Source of the DNA: an uncultured Candidatus Saccharibacteria bacterium
GTDB taxonomy: Bacteria; Patescibacteriota; Minisyncoccia; Phycocordibacterales; UBA918
DNA length: 64,000 nt
Direction: 5' to 3'
NCBI GenBank assembly: GCA_964353135.1
Contig: CAYGTV010000004.1
Location: 3,963 to 67,962 of the forward strand
Part shown: positions 2,528 through 45,280 of the stretch, piece by piece
Layout of the letters: every line of letters starts with the position of its first letter
Position numbering within the stretch: the stretch's first letter is position 1
Program-made: the position numbers and the translations under genes
Notes under the pieces: model-generated
What the model was told of the DNA's origin: nothing
What the model saw: only the letters and a program-made list of their open reading frames with translations
Databases searched by the model: none

Positions 2528-3403
2528 TTACCTACTAACACGGTACTTGCCACCCGCCTGCACAATCAAGCCACTCAGCTCCATCATCATGATGAGTTGG
2601 GTGGTTTTTGCTATATCCATGTTGAGGGTGCGGATGAGTTCATCGCGCTGCATGGGTTCGTGTAGGGCTTTTAGGATAGTTTGTTCATCTTCTGATAGTG
2701 ATGTCAGTGAGTCCATCAAAGTCGGCTGTCGTTCATTGGTAGTGTCTATACCAAGTACCTGTAGGATGTCAGTCGCGCAAGTCACCGGTGTCGCTCCTAG
2801 TTTCAAAAACTGATGAATGCCGTCATGCTGTTTGGAAAAAATACTGCCCGGGACGACGAGTAATTCACGATTGTAGTCAGCACATAGCCGGGCGGTGATC
2901 AAGGTACCACTTTTTTCAGCCGCTTCGACTAGTAAGGTTGCATGGCTGATGCCAGCTTGGATCCGGTTTCTCTGTGGAAATGACCACTTGGTTGCTTGAA
3001 AGGTGGGTTCAAACTCTGATAGCAAACATCCGCCAGCTTCGAGAATTCGCTGCGCAAGTTTTTTATGGCTAGCTGGGTACAGGACCGAATCATCAATCCC
3101 TCCGCCCGGGATCACTAGTGTATATAAATTATTCTTGAGAGCTGCTTCGTGTGCGAGGCTATCGATCCCGAGTGCGAGTCCAGACACAATCCCGACGTTA
3201 TATCCACGAAGACCATCGATCAGCTCATCAACACACTGTTTTCCATAGCTGGTGTACTTCCGGCTACCGACTACGGTGAGCAGCTTCATATCGTTCGGGG
3301 GTAATATTCCGCGGTAATTCAAAGATTGTGGCGGCTCTGGGATGTGTTTAAGCAGTTCTGGAATGGCATTTGATTCCAGCTTTGAAATCGGAAACGACGT
3401 CAT
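2528..3403 (-). CDS. dprA: DNA processing protein DprA/Smf
   Basis: 291 aa with DprA Rossmann-like motifs (VVGSRKYTSYGKQ, IVSGLALGIDSLAHEAAL, VIPGGGID) and a C-terminal winged-helix-like tail. It lies immediately upstream of topA on the same strand, the classic dprA-topA arrangement. Confidence 0.85.
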   Translation of the reverse strand: MTSFPISKLESNAIPELLKHIPEPPQSLNYRGILPPNDMKLLTVVGSRKYTSYGKQCVDELIDGLRGYNVGIVSGLALGIDSLAHEAALKNNLYTLVIPGGGIDDSVLYPASHKKLAQRILEAGGCLLSEFEPTFQATKWSFPQRNRIQAGISHATLLVEAAEKSGTLITARLCADYNRELLVVPGSIFSKQHDGIHQFLKLGATPVTCATDILQVLGIDTTNERQPTLMDSLTSLSEDEQTILKALHEPMQRDELIRTLNMDIAKTTQLIMMMELSGLIVQAGGKYRVSR

Positions 3404-10142: not shown

Positions 10143-10775
10143 ATGAAAAAGGTTTATTTGGTAAGACATGGTGAGACATCCTATAATCGTGATCATCTAG
10201 TCCAAGATGGTTCAACTACTTTGACTGAGTTAGGTCACAAACAGGCTGAATTAGTAGCAGAACGTTTACAGTCTATAGATTTTTCACACTTGATTGTTAG
10301 TGATTATGAACGAACTAAACAGACGGCACAGCCAACGATAGAAAGGAAATCTATCGAGGCAATTTATACCCCTTTATTTCGAGAGGTTCGTCGGCCTAGT
10401 AGATTTTTTCATACCTCAAGAAAAACAGATGAGTATCAGAACTTTATGAAATTGGAATTTGAAAATTTTGCTAGTAATCCTGAGTGGCATGATTCAGACG
10501 AAGAGAATTTTGTCGACGCTTCAACTCGTGCATTAGAAGCACTGCAATTTCTAAAAAACTTAGACGGTGATGTTGCTGTCATTAGCCATGGACATTTTAT
10601 TCGTCATATTGTTGCTCAGGTCGCAACAAATCTACAATTAGATGGTCCAACATGGAAAAAAATGTGTCGATCATTTTTTGCTGTAAATACCGGTATTACA
10701 ACACTAGAATACAGTGCATCTGAGGACCATTGGCACATTCTTACTTTTAACGACATCGCTCACTTCGCGGAATAA
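10143..10775 (+). CDS. histidine phosphatase family protein (phosphoglycerate-mutase-like)
   Basis: An RHGE motif (VRHGETSYN) plus ISHGHFIR. The start codon overlaps the dnaX stop. Confidence 0.8.
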   Translation: MKKVYLVRHGETSYNRDHLVQDGSTTLTELGHKQAELVAERLQSIDFSHLIVSDYERTKQTAQPTIERKSIEAIYTPLFREVRRPSRFFHTSRKTDEYQNFMKLEFENFASNPEWHDSDEENFVDASTRALEALQFLKNLDGDVAVISHGHFIRHIVAQVATNLQLDGPTWKKMCRSFFAVNTGITTLEYSASEDHWHILTFNDIAHFAE

Positions 10776-10777
10776 TT

Positions 10778-11389
10778 ATGAAAGTGATATTTGTTCGACA
10801 TGGCCAAACTGGTGAAAACGTGGTGCATCGCCACCAGCCAAACAACACGCCGTTGTCTATAGAAGGGCGACGGCAGGCTGTGATGGCCGGGGAACGTATC
10901 GCAGCGATCAATCCAACCCACATTGTCAGTAGTCCACTGGTGCGATCACTCCAGACCGCTAGTTTGATCGCCAATGAGTGTGACATGATTCCGAGTATTG
11001 ACTACTCACTAGTAGAACTAGAGCGTCCGCCAACTGTGACTGGATATGGCCATATGAGTAGCCGCTCGCTGTTTTTCTATCTGTGGTGGTACTCTAGTTT
11101 ATCGCGCAGTGGTGAGTCGTACAGCATGATCCGCCAGCGGATTGCGATTGCTCGACAGAACCTAGAGCGACTCCCAGCTGATGCAACCGTTGTGGTGGTG
11201 TCACACTCAGTGTTTATCAGCTTGTTTATTGCTCATGTCTGCCGGACACACATGCTGGGTCCAGTGGGGATTGTGCGGGCGTTTTTTATGCTTAAAAAGA
11301 TGCCTAATACCGGCATGACCGAGTATGAGGTGTCGGTAGCACAAGGTCTCTGTGGTTGGGTGAGGACTAATGACTTGAATCTAAGCTAG
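10778..11389 (+). CDS. histidine phosphatase family protein (tandem paralog)
   Basis: VRHGQTGEN and VSHSVFIS motifs. It lies immediately downstream of its paralog. Confidence 0.75.
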   Translation: MKVIFVRHGQTGENVVHRHQPNNTPLSIEGRRQAVMAGERIAAINPTHIVSSPLVRSLQTASLIANECDMIPSIDYSLVELERPPTVTGYGHMSSRSLFFYLWWYSSLSRSGESYSMIRQRIAIARQNLERLPADATVVVVSHSVFISLFIAHVCRTHMLGPVGIVRAFFMLKKMPNTGMTEYEVSVAQGLCGWVRTNDLNLS

Positions 11390-36041: not shown

Positions 36042-36061
36042 TATTTGATACAATAGTATAT

Positions 36062-36751
36062 ATGCAAAAACCAGTAGCATTCTTTGACGTAGACGGCACA
36101 CTATTCCGCTCCAGTTTACTGATCGAGTTGGTCGAAGAACTGGTGCGTGAAGGAATTTTCCCTAGTGATGCGCAAACTGGCTATGCCCGATCGCATGCCG
36201 CCTGGCTGGCTCGAGAGGGAGCCTATGATGCGTACATCGACGCCGTAATTCAAACTTTTCTAACTCATATTAAAGGCGTACACTATGGGCAACTAGCAGA
36301 CATTGGTAGGCGGGTAGTGGCTCTCAAGAGTAAACGTGTGTATACATTTACTCGTGATTACGTCCAGGAATTAAAAGCGGATGGATATATAGTGATCGCG
36401 ATTTCTCAGTCTCCTAAAACTGTCCTCGATGAATTTTGTCGGCAGTATGGCTTTGACAAGGTCTACGGACGGATGTATGAAATTGGCCCCAGTGACTGTT
36501 TTACCGGTGAAGTGACAGATGAGCATTTGATTTCAAACAAGGCGAACATTGTAAATCGAGTGTTTGAACGCCATCTTGAGCTAACTCGGGAAGGTTCAAT
36601 CGCGGTAGGTGACACCGATGGTGATATTCCACTGCTTGAGAGTGTCGATCGACCGATCTGCTTTAATCCCAACCGGGCGCTACTTGATCACGCTAAAAGT
36701 CAGGGATGGGAAGTGGTTGTGGAGCGAAAGGACGTCATCTACAAACTGTAG
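36062..36751 (+). CDS. HAD-superfamily hydrolase (subfamily IB, phosphoserine-phosphatase-like)
   Basis: Motif I (FFDVDGTLF) and motif IV (GDTDGDIP). A TGATACAAT box lies 7 nt upstream of the ATG. Confidence 0.75.
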   Translation: MQKPVAFFDVDGTLFRSSLLIELVEELVREGIFPSDAQTGYARSHAAWLAREGAYDAYIDAVIQTFLTHIKGVHYGQLADIGRRVVALKSKRVYTFTRDYVQELKADGYIVIAISQSPKTVLDEFCRQYGFDKVYGRMYEIGPSDCFTGEVTDEHLISNKANIVNRVFERHLELTREGSIAVGDTDGDIPLLESVDRPICFNPNRALLDHAKSQGWEVVVERKDVIYKL

Positions 36752-36799
36752 TTGACGACATCTTATTTATTTTGTATTTTAAGTAAGTCTTTCGGGACT

Positions 36800-37235
36800 A
36801 TAGACATAAACGCGCTCATATACACGGATCGGACCCGGGGGCGGTACCCGGCGACTCCACCAAATTTCCATGAACTACTGTTCAGGCATCAGGGGTCGAA
36901 ATAGGATCGACGAACGTTTAAAAGGGTTAGCTTTGTCTCGGTGAGTCACCACCGTTATCGGTACAAATTTGACAAATGCAGATGAAAATCTTGCTGATGT
37001 GCCGCATCCGGCGTTTTTGCCGGCTGGTGCACAGGGTTCCGCAGCTTTTGCTTAAGGATCCGTCACTTTAAGCCCTTAGGTTTTGCAGCCTGAGGCGGGG
37101 TCCGAGGGTACCTGGCAACAGAAACCCTCATTTAGTTATTTAGCTTTAGAGATCAGCCTGGTGCGGCTGTTGTCAGAGGGAGTAGCGTGCCCTCATCAAT
37201 GTCAGATTGCCACTCGCGTGATCTGACATTTTTCG
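36800..37235 (+). ncRNA. ssrA: tmRNA (ssrA), apparently circularly permuted two-piece form
   Basis: T-arm/acceptor-3'-CCA (GGACCCGGG-GGCGGTA-CCCGG-CGACTCC-A-CCA) ends at 36862 and is followed by a 29-nt spacer. The 5' half GGGGTCGAAATAGGATCGACG begins at 36892 (compare E. coli GGGGCTGATTCTGGATTCGACG). The acceptor stem GGGGUCG/CGACUCC includes the G3:U70 Ala identity pair. A tag ORF starts at GCA 36978 (ADENLADVPHPAFLPAGAQGSAAFA, stop 37053-37055). A terminator hairpin sits at 37201-37235. The 5' boundary is uncertain. Confidence 0.75.
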
Positions 37236-37248
37236 TTATTATATAGAT

Positions 37249-37470
37249 ATGAAAAAGAAATTAACTCGAAATACAGAAGACAAATTGATTGCTGGCGTCA
37301 TGTCAGGTTTGGCTGATTATTTTGACCAAGATGTGGTTTTGTTCCGTTTACTTGGGGCAGCAGCTTTTGTGTTTACTGGGTTTGCACCGTTTGGGATTTT
37401 GTACATCTTTGCCTGGGTGATTATTCCTGAAAAGGGAGCGACTGATCCAGAATATACCGTGGTTGACTAG
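37249..37470 (+). CDS. PspC-domain membrane protein
   Basis: LTRNTEDKLIAGVMSGLADYF...LFRLL...YIFAWVIIP matches the PspC domain consensus. Confidence 0.75.
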   Translation: MKKKLTRNTEDKLIAGVMSGLADYFDQDVVLFRLLGAAAFVFTGFAPFGILYIFAWVIIPEKGATDPEYTVVD

Positions 37471-37471
37471 T

Positions 37472-38845
37472 ATGGTCGACGAACGTCGCGTACAACTAAA
37501 AAACGATAGAGAAGCTGGATATGGTCCGGTTGTATATGTGATGGCTCGTGAGCAGCGGGTGGATGACAACTGGGCGCTGCTGTACGCCCAGGAACAGGCC
37601 GTAGAGCGCGGTGTGTCTCTATGTGTACTGTTTGCCTTGGGTCCCATGTTTTGTAGCGGTACAGCGCGTCACAACGCCTGGATGCTGGCTTCGCTGCAAG
37701 AGGTCCAGTCAAACCTAGAGAAGCACAACATTCCTTTTTTTATAGAGATCGGTGAATGGAAAGATGTTATTCCTGCATTTGTAGACCGGCATGATGTGGG
37801 TGAATTAGTGTTTGATTTTAATCCGCTCCAGCCAGTGCGAGGTTGGCGAGATCAGGTTACGGCACAAGTGAATTGCAAAGTGGTCGAGGCGGATGCTCGC
37901 AACATTATTCCAGTCTGGGAAGCGAGTGATAAACTCGAATTTGCCGCTCATACTATTCGCAAGAAAATCCACCGTCGATTAGGTGAATTTTTGACAGATT
38001 TTCCAAATGTTAAAAAACAAAAAGTTGACTGGTTGGGCGAGGTGTCAAAGATTGATTGGGATGCTGTGGTTTCGTATCGACAGTTTGAGGTTGATGCTCC
38101 TGTACCAGATACATTCACACCTGGATCTGACGCAGCACAAGCCATGCTGCAGGATTTCATCGGTAATCGATTAGTTGGCTACAACGAACGACGTAATGAT
38201 CCAAATGAAGATGGGGTTTCTCACCTCTCTCCATATTTACGCTGGGGCAATATTTCTGCCCAGCGAGTTGCTCTAGAGGTAAAACGTCTGACCGGTATTC
38301 CAACCGAAGACAAAGAAGCTTTTTTGGAAGAGTTGATTGTTCGCCGTGAACTGACCGATAATTATGTCTACTATAATCCAGACTATAATCAGGTAGGTGG
38401 AGCGCACGCATGGGCCCAAAAGACCATCAGAGCGCACGAAAGTGACAAACGTGAGTATATCTACACGTTAGAACAATTTGAGCAGGCACAGACTCATGAT
38501 GACCTCTGGAACGCTGCTCAGATTCAGATGGTGCAAGGGGGTAAGATGCATGGGTACTTGCGGATGTACTGGGCAAAAAAGATCCTCGAGTGGACACCGG
38601 ACGCGCAAACTGCTATCGATACAGCCTTAACGCTTAATGATCGCTATAACCTTGATGGGCGCGATTCAAACGGGGTTGTGGGTGTAATGTGGTCTATCTG
38701 TGGGGTGCACGATCGAGCGTGGACCGAACGAGACGTGTTTGGAAAAATCCGCTATATGAATTACAACGGATGTAAACGAAAGTTTGATGTCCCCGCGTTT
38801 GTAGCGAAATATACCGTTGATCAAGAATCGATGTTTAATGACTAA
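37472..38845 (+). CDS. phr: class II CPD deoxyribodipyrimidine photolyase
   Basis: N-terminal RVQLKN...GPVVYVMAREQRVDDNWALLYAQ (class II photolyase signature) and a C-terminal FAD-binding region (GKMHGYLRMYWAKKILEW). Confidence 0.8.
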   Translation: MVDERRVQLKNDREAGYGPVVYVMAREQRVDDNWALLYAQEQAVERGVSLCVLFALGPMFCSGTARHNAWMLASLQEVQSNLEKHNIPFFIEIGEWKDVIPAFVDRHDVGELVFDFNPLQPVRGWRDQVTAQVNCKVVEADARNIIPVWEASDKLEFAAHTIRKKIHRRLGEFLTDFPNVKKQKVDWLGEVSKIDWDAVVSYRQFEVDAPVPDTFTPGSDAAQAMLQDFIGNRLVGYNERRNDPNEDGVSHLSPYLRWGNISAQRVALEVKRLTGIPTEDKEAFLEELIVRRELTDNYVYYNPDYNQVGGAHAWAQKTIRAHESDKREYIYTLEQFEQAQTHDDLWNAAQIQMVQGGKMHGYLRMYWAKKILEWTPDAQTAIDTALTLNDRYNLDGRDSNGVVGVMWSICGVHDRAWTERDVFGKIRYMNYNGCKRKFDVPAFVAKYTVDQESMFND

Positions 38846-39650
38846 ACAAGAACAGGAGTTTCAAACCTTCGTACTAGATTGGTATGAAAAGTGTGGCCGC
38901 CATGATTTGCCGTGGCGACAAACACATGATCCGTACTGCGTGCTGGTGTCGGAACTTATGTTACAGCAGACACAGGTAGTGCGAGTCATTCCAAAGTACG
39001 AAGCTTTTATTAAAAAATATCCAACTGCGCAAAAACTAGCCAAGGCAAGTCTTGGTGATGTGTTGCGTATGTGGCAGGGATTGGGTTACAACCGTCGAGC
39101 AAAATTTTTACTCCAGTGTGCTCAAGAAATTACCTTAAGTCATAAAGGGAAATTCCCGACAGAATATACTGACTTATTGAAACTGCCAGGAATTGGCCCT
39201 TATACAGCAGCAGCTATCTGCGCATTTGCATACAATCAGCCGATCGAACTAGTAGAAACAAATGTAAGGCAGGTCTATATTCACCATTTTTTCGGGCGGG
39301 TAGAAGAAGTGACTGATGTCCAGATTCTAGAGAAAGTACGCCGTACACTACCTGCCGATCATTCACGCGAGTGGTACGCTTCCCTGATGGACTACGGTAG
39401 TCATTTAAAAGCCTGTAATGGCAATAACACCAGGAAGATAAAGGGGTATACCAAACAATCCCAGTTCAAAGGTAGTGACAGGGAAGTAAGGGCAGCGATT
39501 GTGCGAGCTTTGACTAAACAACCTTTAACTAAAACAGAGCTGTGGAAAGAATTAGATCGCTACGACCAAGCGAAAATCCAACCCCAGCTAGATATATTGT
39601 TGGCTGAAGAGATGGTGGGTGAAAAGAAAGGGAGTTATCGTTTACCTTAA
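38838..39650 (+). CDS. mutY: HhH-GPD adenine DNA glycosylase (MutY-like, lacks NUDIX C-terminal domain)
   Basis: DLPWRQTHDPYCVLVSELMLQQTQV and LPGIGPYTAAAI (HhH-GPD motifs). 277 aa. The start overlaps the photolyase stop. Confidence 0.65.
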   Translation: MTKQEQEFQTFVLDWYEKCGRHDLPWRQTHDPYCVLVSELMLQQTQVVRVIPKYEAFIKKYPTAQKLAKASLGDVLRMWQGLGYNRRAKFLLQCAQEITLSHKGKFPTEYTDLLKLPGIGPYTAAAICAFAYNQPIELVETNVRQVYIHHFFGRVEEVTDVQILEKVRRTLPADHSREWYASLMDYGSHLKACNGNNTRKIKGYTKQSQFKGSDREVRAAIVRALTKQPLTKTELWKELDRYDQAKIQPQLDILLAEEMVGEKKGSYRLP

Positions 39651-40856
39651 TTATTTCGTATCCTCAATATACAGCGTGCAAAACATCGCTGGCACCATCA
39701 GGAGAGCAAACACAACAAACAAAAAATGAAACGGGATATAGAGTAGAGCCAAACTGGCGATAACAGCACCAAGAACGTATGCCAGTGGCCGAGTTAGGCG
39801 GAAGAAACTGATGATCTGTGCATCCGATGATTTGGTTTGTTTAAAGAAGTACGACTCAGTTGTTACCTCAACCAGGGCCGCACCTACCCGGGTAGTAAAC
39901 ATGATGATTGACCAAACCAGTACGCTGGCAACTGTCACAAAAGACATCCACGAGGTGGCGATGATAATAATGAGAAAGCCAAAGCCCATCATTTCCTTTT
40001 CACCAATGTACCGGTCAGCAATGATTCCAATTGGGTACTCAAATAGCACGTAAGCTAACTGAGCAAAGAACATGATAATCCCAAACTCAGCCCAGCTGAG
40101 TCCAATACGGCTCGTAAGATAGAGTGGTGTATATACCACCATCATCATAAAAAACATCTGGAGCAAAAACCCCGCAATAAACACACTACGAATATTCACA
40201 TTTGCCCAAAAGGTGTTAATAGCTGAGAACAAATCAATTTCGCCATACTCTGGGTCGGAAAAGTCCTTAAAGAAAAATAGCAATATAATTAATACCGGGA
40301 TCAAGGTTGCCGCACTAACTAAATATGCATTGGTAAAATCTGATCCGTCTGTACTGATTAGTAGCCCACTAATCAATGGCGAGCAGGCCCCAACTAGACT
40401 GGCAAGCGTGAGTAGTAAACCACGACTAGAGCCGGTCCCACTTTCGTCATTCCCGATGCGTTCCTCCATAAACACATCTAGGTTAAATATAATCAGCGGT
40501 ACAGTTATGAGGTGTACGATAAACAACGGTATGGCGACTTCAAGCGTGGTGGCAAACGACATCCCTAGTACGGCCGCAAAGTTTGCACACAGTAGTCCAA
40601 CGGTTAGTTTAAAGTTGCCAACCTTCTTCAGTACTCGCGAAATGAATAAAAAGACCAAAACACTTAGGGCTGATCCAACTGTGTAGATGGTTCCTACACT
40701 CGCAGTGTCTATGAATTGCTCAAGAAACGATGAGTTGATGTATGCAACGACAAAGGTGTGAAATACCAAGAGCAAAACCGCGGCATAGACCGGGATGAGT
40801 TTCCGTTTAGGGTTACGGCGAAGGACAACGCTGTGGGAGGCTTTGGGCATATTCAT
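39651..40856 (-). CDS. MFS transporter
   Basis: About 12 TM segments. The start is chosen at MNMPKAS. Confidence 0.7.
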   Translation of the reverse strand: MNMPKASHSVVLRRNPKRKLIPVYAAVLLLVFHTFVVAYINSSFLEQFIDTASVGTIYTVGSALSVLVFLFISRVLKKVGNFKLTVGLLCANFAAVLGMSFATTLEVAIPLFIVHLITVPLIIFNLDVFMEERIGNDESGTGSSRGLLLTLASLVGACSPLISGLLISTDGSDFTNAYLVSAATLIPVLIILLFFFKDFSDPEYGEIDLFSAINTFWANVNIRSVFIAGFLLQMFFMMMVVYTPLYLTSRIGLSWAEFGIIMFFAQLAYVLFEYPIGIIADRYIGEKEMMGFGFLIIIIATSWMSFVTVASVLVWSIIMFTTRVGAALVEVTTESYFFKQTKSSDAQIISFFRLTRPLAYVLGAVIASLALLYIPFHFLFVVFALLMVPAMFCTLYIEDTK

Positions 40857-40919
40857 ACAGTATAAGCCGCCCGGGACGTAGTCCCGGGCGGCTGTACACA
40901 TTGCTTCACTATGCTTGGA

Positions 40920-42971
40920 TTAAATACCGATTAAAACCGGGATTACCATTGGGTTCTTGGATGTCTTTTGCATCAAGAATCCGGAAAGTTTGTTAGTGAC
41001 TTCTTCTTTGGCAATTTCTAAGTCAATTGGATGTTGGCCGTTTGTGCACTGTTCGATTGTTCGTTTTACGAGTACTCGTGCCTCTGATAGCAACTGCTGA
41101 TTCTCTCGCAAATACACGAATCCTCGTGAGATGATGTCTGGAGATTTTCGAAGCTTCCCAGTCTTACTGTTTACGGTGGCAATCACCACAAACATTCCAT
41201 CTTCGGACAGGCTCTTTCGATCACGTAGGACTACTTCTTGACGAGTTCCGACGGTAAATCCATCTACCATAAGTTGGTCGTTAGGGATTGTCATCGATAG
41301 TCTGGTCAGTTCCTCACCGTTTTTGATGTCGATGATGGTTCCGGTATCAGGCACAATCACGTTATCAGCCGGGAAGCCGTTTTCAACCGCTGCGTACTTG
41401 TGAGCCTTCAAGAATGCATGGTGTCCGTGAACCGGGATCAGGAATTTTGGTTTGACGGCTTTATGCACCCAAACGAGTTCTCCAGCGTTTCCGTGACCAG
41501 ACGCGTGAACGTGTGATCCTTGGAAGTTGGTAATTCGTACGTTCATACGTGAAATGTTGTCTCGTAGTTTTTGAACAGAAATTTCGTTTCCAGGGATAAC
41601 TGATGATGAGAGCACAATAGTGTCTCGCTCAGTTAGAGTGATGAACTTGTGTTTGTTGGTTGCCATTCGCATCAACGCGGCAAACTCTTCTCCTTGGGCG
41701 CCAGTTGAAAGGACGATGATCTTGTCAGACGGGTAGTCTTTGATGTCGTGTCCTTGGATAAATGTCTTTGGATCAACTTCGATCAATTTTGCTTTGATAG
41801 CAATTTCGACGTTAGTTTTCATACTTCGTCCTTCAAGGATCACTTTTTTACCAGTTTCTTCACACACTTTGATCACACTGATGAGACGGTCAAACTGTGA
41901 CGCAAATGTCCCAATGATCAGACGACCCGTGGCGTTACGGATGATTTCTTCTAGCGTTTCAAACACGCGGGACTCAGAAGCAGAGAAACCAGCTCGTTCA
42001 GCGTTAGTCGAGTCACATAGTAGAGCGAGGTTGTTGTTGAGTCCTACCTTTTCCCATGATGATCGTTCTTCGACAACCACTTCACCGTCTTCGTGGACTA
42101 GCTTGATGTCACCAGTCACAACCACGTCACCGTGTTTAGTTTCAACTCCGATACCCATAGCGTCAGGGATTGAGTGAGTAACTGGGAAGGTCTTGATTCG
42201 TGTTTTTCCAACCGTGAACGCTTCACCTTCTTTGATTACGTTCATAGTCACTGGTTCCATTTGTGGGAACTCCTCCTGTCGCTTGAGGATCATCAGTGAG
42301 GTTAAGTATTGGGTGTAGATTGGCGGGTTGCCAATTCGCTCCATAATAAATGGAATTCCTCCGATATGGTCGAGGTGACCGTGAGTCACAACTAGGGCGC
42401 GAATTTTATGCTTTCGTTCTTCTAGGTACTGGGTGTTTGGCAGGATGTAGTTGATCCCAGGGGCATTTGATTCTTCGGATACAAACTGGAAACCAGCGTC
42501 GACAACGATGATGTCGTCTTTGGTTTCGATTATGTTCATGTTTCGACCGATTTCTTCAACACCAGAGACGGTGATGATTCGAACTGTGTCTTCGTCAGTG
42601 ATTTCTGGAATTTTTCCGCCATGAGCCTCGCCCGCACCTAGTCGGTGCGTTAGGGCAGGAGCTTTGTCTGATCGCCTTTGCTGAGGTCGGCGTCCCTTTC
42701 CTCGCTGAGGTCGTCCTCCACCAGTTGGTGCACCACCACGCTGAGGTCCCCGTCCTTGTGGTCGAGTCCGTGGTCCACCAGTTGGACGTCCGCCACCCGG
42801 ACGCTGTGAACTACCACGTGTACCACGTGGTCGAGCAGGAGCAGCACTGGCCTGCGGTGCTGGTCGTTCAGCCGCTTTTGGGTTTGAACCATCACGATTT
42901 CCAAATGGGCGTCGCGTTCGCCTTGGCTTGTCAGCGTTACTGTTTGTTTGAGTATTGTTTGTTTCGTTCAT
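40920..42971 (-). CDS. rnj: ribonuclease J with Arg/Gly/Pro-rich N-terminal extension
   Basis: Metallo-beta-lactamase HxHxDH motif (VVTHGHLDHIGG), beta-CASP and C-terminal domains. About 110 N-terminal residues are low-complexity R/G/P/Q-rich. Confidence 0.85.
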   Translation of the reverse strand: MNETNNTQTNSNADKPRRTRRPFGNRDGSNPKAAERPAPQASAAPARPRGTRGSSQRPGGGRPTGGPRTRPQGRGPQRGGAPTGGGRPQRGKGRRPQQRRSDKAPALTHRLGAGEAHGGKIPEITDEDTVRIITVSGVEEIGRNMNIIETKDDIIVVDAGFQFVSEESNAPGINYILPNTQYLEERKHKIRALVVTHGHLDHIGGIPFIMERIGNPPIYTQYLTSLMILKRQEEFPQMEPVTMNVIKEGEAFTVGKTRIKTFPVTHSIPDAMGIGVETKHGDVVVTGDIKLVHEDGEVVVEERSSWEKVGLNNNLALLCDSTNAERAGFSASESRVFETLEEIIRNATGRLIIGTFASQFDRLISVIKVCEETGKKVILEGRSMKTNVEIAIKAKLIEVDPKTFIQGHDIKDYPSDKIIVLSTGAQGEEFAALMRMATNKHKFITLTERDTIVLSSSVIPGNEISVQKLRDNISRMNVRITNFQGSHVHASGHGNAGELVWVHKAVKPKFLIPVHGHHAFLKAHKYAAVENGFPADNVIVPDTGTIIDIKNGEELTRLSMTIPNDQLMVDGFTVGTRQEVVLRDRKSLSEDGMFVVIATVNSKTGKLRKSPDIISRGFVYLRENQQLLSEARVLVKRTIEQCTNGQHPIDLEIAKEEVTNKLSGFLMQKTSKNPMVIPVLIGI

Positions 42972-43012
42972 GTTTACTTGTTTAATTAATTACGTTGTTC
43001 GCAATATGAAAA

Positions 43013-44755
43013 TTATTGAGTTGCTTCTACCTCTGTTCTAAAAAATGGCCATAGCGCTCTTGTGTCTGTGTTCCAGAGGGCAATGTTGCTAAATCGGTCT
43101 GATGGGCGAGAAATTTGGTTCATCGGTGCAGTCCTAATGTCAGGAGTCACGATGTACACATTGGTCGGCTGGAACAAAAAGATTGCTGGTCGTTCGGCTG
43201 TGATAACTGCTAGAGCGCTGTCGGTCGCTTTGTTTCGGTCAGCTTGCACCTGGCTGACTCGGGCGGTCTCAAGGAAATCATCCACAGTTAAATTGGCGTA
43301 CTGGGTGATATTCAAGCCAGGATCGTTTTGTTGTGACGAGTGCCAAAAAGGGAAGAGATCGCGCGATCTACTGATGTCTAGTCCAAACAGCAAGACATTA
43401 AAATCTCGTGGTCGAATGACGGATTGGACTAGGTCTGTTTGCTCGTATTGCTCTGTCAAAACTGTAACCCCGAGCTCGCGCCAGCTAGCAGTCACTGCTT
43501 CCAAGGTTGATTCTAGAGTAGGGTTGTTAGCTGTACGGATTGTAACCGTAAGTGGTACAACCGAATCGTCAATTTCTTTCTCCCAGGTTCCGATTGTGTT
43601 ACGTGTCCAGTCGGCTTCTTCTAGTAGTGAACGAGCGGCAGCGAACCGCTGTTCCTGTGATTCTGTACCCTGGAGATTGACTTCTTCTGATTCTACCGTA
43701 GTTGTCGAGGTTGCGGTAGACGCTAGGCTGGGGATGCCGCTACCGCTGAGAGCCTGGTCGATGATTGCTTGCCGATCCAGTACCAGTTCGAGGGCTTCTC
43801 GCACTGCTGCGTCTCGTAGTGCAACGGATCGGTTTTGGTTAAAAAATAGCCCAAACGTTCTCGGTAGCGGAGTGTTGATTACGTTGAAATCAGTCGTGTC
43901 CACTTCTGTCAGAAGTTCGGCTGGAATGTAGGCAGTAGCATCGATATCACCAGCCTCTAGTGCCGCGATCAGCGACGCTTCGGTCGCAAAGAACTGCAAG
44001 GTGATAGTCTCAATTAGTGGTGACTGGTAGTGGTTTGCTGCAGCAGTCAGGCTGTATGCTTCGACGGTTCCGCTACGTGAAAATTTAGCTTCGCTAACCA
44101 TGTAGGGACCACTTCCAATAGGAGTAGTATTGAACTCACTAAATGGTACTTGCTCAATCGGGACAGTTCGCCAGATGTGCGCTGGCAATATTCCTAACGT
44201 AAAGTTTTCAATAAATGGTGCGTATGGTTCTGAAAGCGACACTAGTAGTGACTGTTCATCAACTACTTCCACAACTACTTCGTTCCAGTTTCCACGCAAG
44301 GGACTTTTCAGGTCAGCATTTTGAGCCAGGTCAATGGTAAATAGGACATCGTTAGCGGTTAGTTGTACACCATCATGGAAAAAAACATCAGTGCGTAGAT
44401 TGATCGTATAGGTTGTACCGTCGTCAGACACAACGACAGATTCAGCAATATCAGTAACCAGGTTTCCTTCGGGATCGATTTTCATCAAACCACTATAGAC
44501 AAGGGCTGTGATGTCCTGATCGGCTCGGGTTAGGGCTAGCACTGGGTTAGCAAACCGAGGGGTGCCCAGGATCCCTTCGGTTAACTCACCTCCAGCTGAT
44601 ACACCAGGTACAGAAACGATCTGATTGGCAACCAAGAGCGTCCAGATGAGTGCTGCAACCGTAATAGCTAGTAATATTCGCAAAAACCACCGATCGCTAG
44701 TTTTAGCGTTTTCGATCACGTTAACGATGTTTGTAACAGAGAAAAAGCGGGTCAT
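43013..44755 (-). CDS. ABC transporter substrate-binding protein, family 5 (oligopeptide/dipeptide-type)
   Basis: 580 aa with an N-terminal TM anchor and an SBP_bac_5-like region (VLALTRADQDITALVYSGLMKIDPEGNLVTDIAES). No permease or ATPase genes are adjacent. Confidence 0.7.
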   Translation of the reverse strand: MTRFFSVTNIVNVIENAKTSDRWFLRILLAITVAALIWTLLVANQIVSVPGVSAGGELTEGILGTPRFANPVLALTRADQDITALVYSGLMKIDPEGNLVTDIAESVVVSDDGTTYTINLRTDVFFHDGVQLTANDVLFTIDLAQNADLKSPLRGNWNEVVVEVVDEQSLLVSLSEPYAPFIENFTLGILPAHIWRTVPIEQVPFSEFNTTPIGSGPYMVSEAKFSRSGTVEAYSLTAAANHYQSPLIETITLQFFATEASLIAALEAGDIDATAYIPAELLTEVDTTDFNVINTPLPRTFGLFFNQNRSVALRDAAVREALELVLDRQAIIDQALSGSGIPSLASTATSTTTVESEEVNLQGTESQEQRFAAARSLLEEADWTRNTIGTWEKEIDDSVVPLTVTIRTANNPTLESTLEAVTASWRELGVTVLTEQYEQTDLVQSVIRPRDFNVLLFGLDISRSRDLFPFWHSSQQNDPGLNITQYANLTVDDFLETARVSQVQADRNKATDSALAVITAERPAIFLFQPTNVYIVTPDIRTAPMNQISRPSDRFSNIALWNTDTRALWPFFRTEVEATQ

Positions 44756-44809
44756 GTAGTTCAGGCGTGCACGCTAGTGCTAGCACGTGTTATACAAATT
44801 ATTCGACGA

Positions 44810-45049
44810 CTAGAGCAGTACGTTCAAAAACGTAGAGAACACAAAGAGAATTGACACTCCGATAGAAAATCGAAAGAGGAATTCTTCTGCACCACGTCGC
44901 TTGTTGAACGCTGAGCTAAAGTTGTCTCCACCAAAAGCGCCACCTAGGCTTGATCCTCGCTGTTGTAGGAGAATTGCTGTGACGAGTAGGATGGAGAGAA
45001 TAATCTGAATGTAGGGCAGTACGTTGAGTACCGTTTCAATAAGATTCAT
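44810..45049 (-). CDS. secG: preprotein translocase subunit SecG
   Basis: 79 aa with ILLQQRGSSLGGAFGG and two TM helices. Confidence 0.8.
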   Translation of the reverse strand: MNLIETVLNVLPYIQIILSILLVTAILLQQRGSSLGGAFGGDNFSSAFNKRRGAEEFLFRFSIGVSILFVFSTFLNVLL

Positions 45050-45280
45050 GTGGCCAGAAGTGTATCAGAAGGTGAAATGGTTGGCAATAGAAAACGGCGA
45101 GACTCATGGCCCTGCCGTTACAACCCTGCAGAAGGAACAGTAAACGGTCCCAGCATCACGCATCAGCCAGAGAAGTTTGATTTTGCTGCTGACACGCACC
45201 CTGACCACAGCCCTACGAACGTAGCGGAACGAGTGTTAGGGTTGGTGTTTATAAAATAGTTTATATTTTAAATTATTGCA

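Follow-up and report, generated by a model that had tools for sequence, protein, structure and literature searches.

A complete alphaproteobacterial-type two-piece tmRNA gene, probably acquired by horizontal transfer, in a chromosome segment of Patescibacteria

The forward strand of the 64,000-nucleotide stretch of DNA analysed here (hereafter the window) carries a complete ssrA gene in circularly permuted (two-piece) form and of alphaproteobacterial type. As a component of the translation apparatus, tmRNA is near-universal and in most cases passed on vertically, and its three permuted lineages, in Alphaproteobacteria, some Betaproteobacteria and some Cyanobacteria, are treated as clade markers; the prototype of the alpha type is the ssrA of Caulobacter crescentus. 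Flanking genes and synteny indicate that the window is a segment of a Patescibacteria (CPR) chromosome and not alphaproteobacterial, betaproteobacterial or cyanobacterial. Very probably, a marine or aquatic lineage of Patescibacteria (Paceibacteria) gained the gene horizontally, as a minimal and functional cassette of ~460 bp that runs from promoter to 3′ end between the genes for a HAD hydrolase and PspC.

A two-piece permuted ssrA had been proposed at this locus in a sequence-only reading, and both ARAGORN and the Rfam permuted models, the tools named there, bear this out. ARAGORN called a permuted tmRNA ('tmRNA*') at 36770-37146 with the tag ADENLADVPHPAFLPAGAQGSAAFA. Using cmscan, the locus matched the full length of RF01849 (alpha_tmRNA, model positions 1-355) with 237.9 bits (E 8.8e-68, gathering score 50) and RF04321 (tmRNA_permuted) with 122.9 bits (gathering score 47). 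The T-arm, the acceptor 3′ strand and the CCA all lie 5′ of the mature GGGG end and the tag reading frame. As had been claimed, there is no T-arm or CCA downstream of the tag, be it by sequence, ARAGORN or Rfam, so that the order is not that of a standard one-piece tmRNA (RF00023). All of the alpha-specific signatures are there and aligned to the consensus (the GGCGGUA T-loop, the 5′ leader hairpin, the long inter-piece helices and the 3′ block with its CCUGGCAACAGAA loop), and they are invariant or compensated across an alignment of 24 sequences. The T-loop had been described as non-canonical. However, GGCGGUA is the normal alpha-type loop: it is the same as in the alpha_tmRNA consensus (GGCgGUA) and does not vary among the 24 aligned alpha-type genes. 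Agreement between this many features is far beyond chance.

The gene begins with a sigma-70-type promoter at 36752-36780 (-35 TTGACG, 17-nt spacer, -10 TATTTT; promoter scan), whose -35 box starts 1 nt past the HAD stop codon and whose region aligns to positions 1-39 of RF01849. The acceptor piece, or 5′ RNA, occupies 36787-36862, as supported by cmscan matches to RF01849 and RF04321, the sequence and RNAalifold pairs; its 5′ end is placed at 36787 on the presumption that transcription starts according to the promoter position. It comprises the leader hairpin GUCU-UUCG-GGAC (36787-36798), the 5′ strands of the inter-piece helices (36802-36831), the T-arm (36835-36851, with CCGGG at 36835-36839 and CCCGG at 36847-36851), the acceptor 3′ strand CGACUCC (36852-36858), the discriminator A (36859) and the encoded CCA (36860-36862). 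An intervening sequence of 29 nt separates the CCA from GGGG (36863-36891) and, judging from the biology of the family, would be excised from the precursor. In most Rhodobacterales-type genes the homologous spacer measures 22-26 nt, and its sequence is not conserved.

The coding piece, or 3′ RNA, extends over 36892-37132 (positions 148-355 of RF01849 in cmscan, with the consensus fold and pair counts), although the transcript may continue as far as the terminator. Its acceptor 5′ strand GGGGUCG (36892-36898) pairs perfectly with CGACUCC and includes G3:U70, as the earlier reading had it. The 3′ strands of the inter-piece helices (36911-36938) and the PK1 region (36939-36970) are followed by the tag reading frame at 36978-37055, which ARAGORN resolves as a GCA resume codon at 36978, 25 codons encoding ADENLADVPHPAFLPAGAQGSAAFA and a UAA stop at 37053-37055; both resume and stop codons line up with those of the RF01849 consensus. 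Downstream is the 3′ pseudoknot/hairpin block (37067-37130) with the hairpin GAGGGU...ACCCUC. The T-arm, acceptor strands, CCA, 29-nt gap, GGGG end and GCA codon were thus all found where they had first been noticed. The intrinsic terminator that had been suggested was also recovered by a terminator scan, as a 13-bp stem and T-run at 37198-37235. The tRNA-like domain is intact, with a 7-bp acceptor stem, a 5-bp T stem, the discriminator A and the CCA.

Compared with the Rhodobacterales (roseobacter) variant of the alpha two-piece tmRNA (RF01849), the gene agrees in its permuted order and promoter layout, in the leader hairpin, inter-piece helices and T-loop, in a 7-bp acceptor stem that contains G3:U70 and an encoded CCA, and in a short intervening sequence, the GCA resume codon and the 3′ block carrying the CCUGGCAACAGAA loop. 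It differs in its Patescibacteria host, in being 22-30% diverged from the nearest sampled genes on a long branch, in its lower G+C, in a remodelled helix-5 pairing and in its tag. With the standard one-piece tmRNA (RF00023) it shares a presumed alanyl-tmRNA/SmpB route of trans-translation, the logic of the tRNA-like domain, G3:U70 and the design of a resume codon plus tag; unlike that form it is permuted, lacks a T-arm and CCA at the 3′ terminus, carries another T-loop and has the pseudoknot set only in part.

The tag is 25 aa long instead of 12-13 aa because of an in-frame insertion of 42 nt (14 codons) at 37000-37041. Insert columns in both cmscan and the multiple alignment delimit this insertion, which sets the gene apart from every other alpha-type gene aligned and is able to form an imperfect hairpin (…CCGGC GUUUUU GCCGG…). 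A dispersed repeat was considered as its source and rejected, no second copy being found within the window. The tag ends in AFA, as opposed to the usual LAA or VAA. The earlier reading had likened its first residues to the ANDEN start of the E. coli tag; the resemblance is there, but it is less informative than derivation from a Rhodobacterales-type tag region plus the 42-nt insertion, which is what the alignment indicates.

A second, diverged alpha_tmRNA copy (249.3 bits) was found in a distant relative from Tara Oceans (L041), directly upstream of pspC. Its tag, ANSNRAPEAAALAA, clearly derives from ANDNRAPxAxAA. The TTGAC box and an AT-rich -10 are kept in this copy as well, and its intervening sequence is 114 nt. 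The base at -2 of the resume codon is changed in both CPR copies.

Alignment of these copies with 22 alpha-type genes and a consensus fold (RNAalifold, with pair counts) showed that 64/73 consensus pairs are canonical in the window copy and 67/73 in the L041 copy, with 5 and 10 double compensatory changes, respectively. Acceptor pair 5:68 (G-C to U-A) and three 3′-hairpin pairs are among those that changed in this way. The tRNA-like domain and the inter-piece helices keep all 31 of their pairs, and the 3′ hairpin is kept too. Broken pairs are limited to the tag region, and the nine in the window copy lie around the tag and helix 5. Changes seen only in the window copy number 18 in 190 otherwise conserved columns. 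Taken together, these patterns point to a core structure held under selection during fast evolution after transfer, seen in the long branches and in the reshaping of tag and helix 5, and the window gene is apparently functional. The AFA end and the nine broken pairs could nevertheless reflect a decaying tag function.

The assignment of the window to the Patescibacteria rests on genes around the locus. The gene for RNase J lies 4 kb away, and the genome collection contains 366 relatives of it; the top match is 94% identical, and the best 80 are almost all labelled Patescibacteria, Paceibacteria or Parcubacteria. About 45 of those loci have the order RNJ-MFS-MutY-Phr-PspC-HAD in common with the window, and the genes that flank the tmRNA are syntenic with about 50 Patescibacteria (Paceibacteria/Parcubacteria) genomes. 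Homologues of the HAD protein are named Paceibacteria, Parcubacteria or Nomurabacteria, and the window otherwise contains housekeeping genes of a chromosome. The RF01849 family name implies an alphaproteobacterial host, whereas the flanks and synteny here are those of Patescibacteria/Paceibacteria, which agrees with the earlier expectation of an unusual genome context. Supplementary Table 2 of PMC11915505 gives 5,252 of 5,275 Patescibacteria tmRNAs, from 6,765 genomes, as standard, 15 as permuted (alpha) and 5 as permuted (beta), so that the one-piece form makes up ~99.6% of those catalogued. The two-piece gene could be redundant if a native standard ssrA lies elsewhere in the genome, beyond the 64 kb covered here. 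A tblastn search with E. coli SmpB gave no match for smpB within the 64-kb window or in 80 related loci.

The boundaries of the acquired DNA can be seen by comparison with relatives. Upstream is the native CPR gene for a HAD-IB family hydrolase (36062-36751, forward strand, 229 aa, NCBIfam TIGR01490), and downstream that for a PspC-domain membrane protein (37249-37470, forward strand, 73 aa, from the ORF list, with Pfam PF04024 found on orthologues). The spacer between them is 496 bp in the window versus 27-46 bp in four related loci (L001, L203, L204, L206), of which the last three encode HAD proteins 84-90% identical to that of the window. A base-level comparison with these four loci revealed that the L203 spacer aligns to ~37214-37248 of the window, and both junctions are therefore native CPR sequence. 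The HAD-side junction in the window rests on one contig. By this comparison and blastn/tblastn synteny the inserted DNA covers 36754-37213 (~460 bp), and the 3′ arm and T-run of the terminator (~37214-37235) belong to the native CPR spacer, with homologous sequence between HAD and pspC in relatives without the tmRNA. None of the closest relatives has a tmRNA at this locus, which is a variable intergenic hotspot. The enlarged HAD-pspC spacers of four further loci (L009, L023, L031, L042) gave no Rfam match to a cryptic tmRNA, and contain protein ORFs instead, e.g. XRE-HTH genes. A 173-bp spacer in very close relatives (L327-L329) was tried as a tmRNA remnant and dismissed, as its alignment score equalled the shuffle mean and it had no Rfam signal; an ARAGORN 'tmRNA' in L068 overlaps tRNA-Ser and is a false positive.

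The gene appears most similar to those of Rhodobacterales (roseobacter group). In a panel picked solely by the universal alpha core (the first reference panel had been picked with a motif from the CPR copies), both CPR copies show 70-78% identity to tmRNAs of the Rhodobacterales type, against ≤62% for the remaining alpha-type genes, among the matches listed. With the motif common to both copies, at least 120 genes were retrieved from metagenomes; their tags read ANDNRAP[VM]A[LMV]AA, and none had a CPR context among the matches listed. Flanking the best-matching locus among these (L174) is a fumarase that shares 88-91% identity with proteins from Loktanella, Yoonia and Paracoccaceae, and in parts the coding piece reaches ~94% identity with a Loktanella/Yoonia-like gene. 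Searching the literature for the Rhodobacterales tag strings gave no result, hence the assignment of donor type rests on this fumarase. Among the matches listed, the nearest donor-type gene is only ~77% identical to the window copy, suggesting either an old transfer or an actual donor that is unsampled. The terminal branches are long (0.18 versus a median of 0.054) and the G+C of the window gene is 0.515 versus a median of 0.552.

Alpha-type two-piece ssrA genes are carried by phages, as described in PMC9004378 for the OM43 phage Melnitz and pelagimyophages, where they are SAR11-like and mostly marine. The cases described there are a precedent for an alpha-type ssrA outside the Alphaproteobacteria after lateral movement, but they are SAR11-like and lie in phage genomes, whereas the window gene is Rhodobacterales-like and chromosomal. 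The window gene had no BLAST match in 50,697 phage records, and the lineage motif had no match in IMG/VR. The universal alpha core was found in at least 120 IMG/VR contigs, which were of other alpha types or Rhodobacterales-type; among the matches listed, none had a CPR-like flank. Carriage by a phage, prophage or genomic island thus found no support, and the insert is ~460 bp between conserved chromosomal genes with no integrase, phage or mobile-element genes adjacent.

How often CPR lineages acquired the gene was approached through its two copies. In a neighbour-joining tree they were sisters in 45/200 bootstraps, the other CPR copy was the nearest sequence in 0/1000, and the nearest reference types differ between them. 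They share 3 derived bases versus ~0.5 expected. There may have been one acquisition or two, the cassette having perhaps passed between CPR lineages or been captured twice at the same intergenic hotspot. Across the alpha-type genes compared, a non-exhaustive set, the data point towards both copies being nested inside the Rhodobacterales.

Function can be modelled on the alpha-type tmRNA of Caulobacter (Keiler et al. 2000, as cited in PMC9004378 and PMC11915505). A single precursor would be transcribed from near 36787, RNase P would cleave 5′ of G36892, and 3′ trimming would bare the encoded CCA at 36862 and release the 29-nt intervening sequence. Given the permuted gene order, the mature RNA would have to be two base-paired pieces, here an acceptor piece of ~76 nt and a coding piece of at least ~240 nt, presumably held together by the 7-bp acceptor stem and the helices 36802-36831/36911-36938. 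AlaRS would charge the RNA via G3:U70, and the charged RNA, with SmpB and EF-Tu, would enter stalled ribosomes. Translation would then resume at GCA 36978, with ADENLADVPHPAFLPAGAQGSAAFA appended for proteolysis.

Three other explanations have to be set against horizontal gain of a functional gene. It is conceivable, if unlikely, that the acquired ssrA is on its way to becoming a pseudogene, the cell depending instead on a native one-piece tmRNA elsewhere in the genome. The broken helix-5 and tag pairs, the long and atypical tag with its AFA end, the long terminal branches, the lack of a tmRNA at the HAD-pspC locus in any closest relative and the rule of standard tmRNA in Patescibacteria would all fit such decay. 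However, the 31/31 tRNA-like and inter-piece pairs and the 3′ hairpin are kept, several by double compensatory changes, the insertion preserves the frame, the resume and stop codons sit on the family consensus, and the promoter and terminator are intact. Moreover, a count of 18 window-only changes across 190 otherwise conserved columns is a long way from neutral decay, given the saturation of neighbouring genes. Much less probable is an assembly or binning artefact, in which a piece of a Rhodobacterales ssrA was fused into a CPR contig. A few permuted genes from other phyla appear in the 2025 tmRNA database, and these are put down by its authors to possible misbinning (PMC11915505); moreover, one of the CPR RNase J contigs (L022) is labelled Rhodobacter, meaning that CPR and Rhodobacter co-occur in samples, and the window junction is supported by one contig. 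Binning, though, is irrelevant to the window gene because it is contig-internal, with syntenic CPR genes on both sides. The native spacer resumes at the right boundary of the ~460-bp insert, so a chimera would require two precise joins. The gene is also at least 22% diverged from each sampled alphaproteobacterial gene, with lower G+C, and a second, independently assembled CPR contig (L041) has the gene at the same pspC-proximal position.

We consider it equally improbable that permutation arose independently, or was inherited vertically from ancient times, within the Patescibacteria, making a fourth two-piece lineage that resembles the alpha type. Permutation has arisen at least three times separately, in the alpha, the beta and the cyano lineage, according to PMC11915505 and PMC9004378, and the locus is common to two CPR species with the slight excess of shared derived bases given above. 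Against this stand the match to the alpha-specific model over its full length (leader hairpin, T-loop and 3′ pseudoknot block included), the ~94% identity of coding-piece parts to a Loktanella/Yoonia-like gene, and the L041 tag, whose sequence points to descent from ANDNRAPxAxAA. One-piece genes also overwhelmingly prevail in the phylum, and ~50 closer relatives have no tmRNA at the HAD-pspC locus.

Horizontal gain of a working gene therefore remains the preferred reading, and the locus provides contig-internal, base-resolved evidence for at least one real cross-phylum case of a permuted tmRNA, with a second copy in another CPR species. Annotators should not throw out such matches as contamination. 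The locus points to the cross-phylum transfer of a core translation component, gives a hint of gene flow from roseobacters to marine CPR bacteria, and offers a natural experiment on the compatibility of a tmRNA with heterologous SmpB, AlaRS and RNase P. More tentatively, the CPR lineage may have swapped its native one-piece tmRNA for a xenologous two-piece tmRNA of the roseobacter group, which would since have become co-adapted with an SmpB, AlaRS, RNase P and ribosome that are foreign to it, with the cassette then passed between CPR lineages or captured twice; such co-adaptation is suggested by the fast evolution, the changed -2 base in both CPR copies and the remodelled tag. The roseobacter-group donor was possibly the physical host, or a close neighbour, of the presumed episymbiont. 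If replacement did occur, the tmRNA-SmpB system would be interchangeable across phyla in nature, and ssrA could mark contact between CPR bacteria and their hosts.

A HAD hydrolase gene (36062-36751) and pspC (37249-37470) flank a tmRNA gene whose two pieces are encoded in permuted order. A sigma-70-like promoter (TTGACG-17-TATTTT, 36752-36780, +), located by consensus scan, precedes a small hairpin (36787-36798, +) that is the first element of the gene; the 5′ strands of the long helices lie between this hairpin and the T-arm (CCGGG/GGCGGUA/CCCGG, 36835-36851, +). The acceptor 3′ strand CGACUCC (36852-36858, +) follows, with the discriminator A and a CCA ending at 36862, and then, after a 29 nt spacer, GGGGUCG (36892-36898, +), which forms a fully paired stem with CGACUCC, G3:U70 included. 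An A-rich stretch precedes the tag frame ADENLADVPHPAFLPAGAQGSAAFA, whose 25 codons run from GCA at 36978 to UAA at 37053-37055 (+). Beyond the UAA lies a G+C-rich structured block and then a hairpin and T-run terminator (37198-37235, +, consensus scan). ARAGORN called a permuted tmRNA at 36770-37146 with an identical tag, and the Rfam model RF01849 (alpha_tmRNA) matched 36748-37132 over model positions 1-355 (237.9 bits, gathering threshold 50, E = 8.8e-68); RF04321 (tmRNA_permuted) scored 122.9 bits. The sequence-only reading had proposed a two-piece ssrA with this layout, naming ARAGORN and the permuted Rfam models as checks; both were positive, and layout and interpretation stand. Its one misjudgement was to call the T-loop non-canonical: GGCGGUA is the alpha-type consensus, invariant in 24/24 aligned alpha-type genes. 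The RNA itself is a member of a well-known family.

The host, judged from its genes, is a bacterium of the candidate phyla radiation (CPR, Patescibacteria) and neither an alpha- or betaproteobacterium nor a cyanobacterium. The RNase J gene 4 kb downstream of the tmRNA has 366 relatives in the genome collection, and the best 80 of these come nearly all from MAGs labelled Patescibacteria, Paceibacteria, Parcubacteria, Nomurabacteria or Kaiserbacteria, the top match being L001 (94% identity). The order RNase J, MFS, MutY-like, class II photolyase, PspC, HAD hydrolase and two further ORFs is kept in approximately 45 of these loci. HAD homologues are named, for example, Candidatus Paceibacteria or Nomurabacteria, and the remaining genes of the window are ordinary chromosomal ones (SerRS, Dus, DnaX/HolB-like, thymidine kinase, RsgA, GroEL, HtpX, BipA, DprA, P-type ATPase). 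The G+C content of the window is 42-49%, its genes, including most long ORFs, lie mostly on the + strand, and GC skew stays positive throughout the 4-kb bins of 1-64000, consistent with the leading strand of one replichore. Nothing in the composition of this interval points to a larger foreign island surrounding the tmRNA. The RNase J (40920-42971, -) carries an Arg/Pro/Gly-rich, low-complexity N-terminal extension of ~120 aa before the beta-CASP core, its NCBIfam match beginning at residue 130, and two neighbouring paralogous histidine-phosphatase (His_Phos_1) genes (10143-11389, +) immediately precede tRNA-Gln(CTG). A 2.3-kb contig (L022, CAYXXQ010000477.1), deposited under the MAG label 'uncultured Rhodobacter sp.', encodes an RNase J of CPR type with 80% identity to that of the window; the contig has probably been misbinned, but it shows that CPR bacteria of this kind and Rhodobacterales co-occur in samples.

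The genome context is, as the sequence-only reading had held, unusual. Patescibacteria tmRNAs in 6,765 genomes comprise 5,252 standard, 15 'permuted (alpha)' and 5 'permuted (beta)' genes (PMC11915505, Suppl. Table 2), and Pseudomonadota contribute 21,950 alpha-type genes (PMC11915505). Permuted genes fall in three main clades, and the authors warn that cross-phylum cases are possibly MAG misbinning (PMC11915505). A literature search found no paper discussing permuted tmRNA in Patescibacteria. Misbinning has no bearing on a feature internal to a contig, and a chimeric assembly would require two precise joins 460 bp apart. L001 aligns unbroken with both flanks (HAD, 36044-36741; pspC onward, 37248-45090), its HAD-to-pspC gap being ~46 bp vs ~506 bp in the window.

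The HAD-pspC spacer (window 36752-37248) was compared across L001, L009, L023, L031, L042, L201-L206 and L327-L329, among them relatives with 84-90% identical HAD proteins taken from independent assemblies. Spacers of 41, 27 and 32 bp were found in L203, L204 and L206, respectively. Elsewhere the spacer holds an XRE-type HTH gene (XRE/HTH_3; L201/L202 and L205), an unrelated non-coding insert of 135 nt that contains a GCCTAG...CTAGGC hairpin (L327-L329) or, in other family members, a 275-aa ORF or small unknown ORFs. Many genomes leave it empty (27-46 bp), and two have the tmRNA in it. Within this Paceibacteria family, small cargo has clearly landed in the spacer repeatedly. At base level, window ~37214-37248 corresponds by homology to the L203 spacer, TAG-TTTCATTCGCATGATTTGTACTTTTTCGTTATGATAGAGGT-ATG; the foreign segment is therefore ~36754-37213, starting at the -35 box just past the HAD stop codon, and the 3′ arm and T-run of the terminator are native spacer sequence. 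ARAGORN, Rfam and BLAST found no tmRNA in the matching region of other relatives, L041 excepted. A one-piece 'tmRNA' called by ARAGORN in L068 (3666-4173, -) is a false positive without Rfam-type evidence, its 3′ end being a tRNA-Ser(GGA) gene.

L041 is a Tara Oceans MAG contig (RNase J 75% identical) with a second alpha_tmRNA match (249.3 bits, tag ANSNRAPEAAALAA) directly upstream of its own pspC. Both copies retain the promoter -35 TTGAC and an AT-rich -10. The intervening sequence of L041 (11279-11392, -) is 114 nt, vs 29 nt in the window and 22-26 nt in most Rhodobacterales-type genes.

A motif common to both CPR copies, GGATCGAC-N-AACG-NN-TAAA-NN-GGTTAGCTTT, matched at least 120 metagenome loci, all of those listed having 42-70% G+C and none having HAD/pspC or other window-like genes. 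Those listed carry permuted tmRNAs with tags ANDNRAP[VM]A[LMV]AA, from which the L041 tag evidently derives. The best match to the window among them, L174, adjoins a class II fumarase 88-91% identical to those of Loktanella, Yoonia and other Paracoccaceae/Rhodobacterales, and differs from the window at only ~5/78 positions over the acceptor stem, inter-piece helices and PK1 region. Since this panel had been chosen with a CPR-derived motif, a second was built from the universal alpha core GGACCCGGGGGCGGTACCCGGCGNCTCCACCA in IMG/VR. In this panel both CPR genes show 70-78% identity to the Rhodobacterales-type genes L174, L108, L223 and L264, and no more than 62% to any other alpha-type gene among the matches listed. 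These identities, the fumarase flank, the near-identical core and the L041 tag point to the roseobacter group or a close relative as the most likely donor, the nearest sampled gene being only ~77% identical overall. The IMG/VR set (L207-L326) comprises more than 120 viral-classed contigs with the invariant alpha-type T-arm/acceptor core. These are probably sites where a prophage or island joins ssrA, or else ssrA genes carried by phages; L249, a low-GC contig among them, has the tag ADENLALAA, resembling the first six residues of the window tag.

The two copies may share a single origin, or have spread between CPR bacteria, as their identical pspC-proximal position would suggest. Moreover, they share three derived bases at otherwise conserved columns (~0.5 expected) and group as sisters by neighbour joining, albeit in only 45/200 bootstraps and in a setting prone to long-branch attraction. 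One shared base, at -2 of the resume codon (window 36976), is A (AAAUGCA) vs U (AAUUGCA) in at least 90% of Rhodobacterales-type genes; the region before the resume codon guides frame selection with SmpB, and the A could be adaptive or inherited. Independent captures are favoured by other observations: some Rhodobacterales gene is always nearer to each copy than the other CPR copy (0/1000 bootstraps), covarying PK1 states match different reference types, and all closer relatives of the window lack the gene, their intact short spacers looking ancestral. A double capture is less implausible given that the spacer is a recurrent landing site.

Consensus folding of both CPR genes together with 22 diverse Rhodobacterales-type genes predicted 73 pairs, 22 with compensatory changes. 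Canonical pairing is kept at 64/73 in the window and 67/73 in L041 (references 69-73), and all broken pairs lie within the tag/helix-5 segment. Five pairs are double-compensated in the window and ten in L041; those of the window are acceptor 5:68 (G-C to U-A), one in the pseudoknot stem and another three in the 3′ hairpin, where GAGGGU/ACCCUC replaces GCAGGC/GCCUGC. The window tag carries a hairpin-capable 42-nt insertion that keeps the frame and has no other copy in the window, and the resume and stop codons of the tag align to those of the RF01849 consensus. Both CPR copies have long terminal branches (0.18 vs median 0.054), and the window copy has a lower G+C (0.515 vs 0.552). The pattern is that of a tmRNA which structural selection has preserved as it adapts to a new cellular background, rather than that of a relic in decay, although the remodelling of the tag region makes it somewhat doubtful how efficiently it tags.

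The expected steps are modelled on the alpha-type tmRNA that Keiler and colleagues reportedly characterised in 2000. A single precursor would be transcribed from the promoter at 36752-36780, RNase P would cut before G36892, 3′ trimming would expose the CCA at 36862, and the 29-nt spacer would be lost. The two RNAs would be held by the acceptor stem and helices 36802-36831/36911-36938, G3:U70 would be recognised by AlaRS, and SmpB and EF-Tu would bring the RNA to stalled ribosomes, translation resuming at GCA 36978. No smpB lies within the 64-kb window. Alpha-type two-piece ssrA is carried by marine phages (PMC9004378). The window gene had no match among 50,697 phage records and has no phage or integrase genes as neighbours; the inserted DNA is the gene alone. 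The window also encodes dprA (2528-3403, -; DNA_processg_A and DprA_WH domains), a natural-transformation component, which is compatible, as a suggestion only, with uptake of the cassette by natural transformation. Taken together, these data give good support to something new, an alpha-type permuted tmRNA residing in a Patescibacteria chromosome after cross-phylum transfer and apparently functional there; a related lineage supplies another such case.
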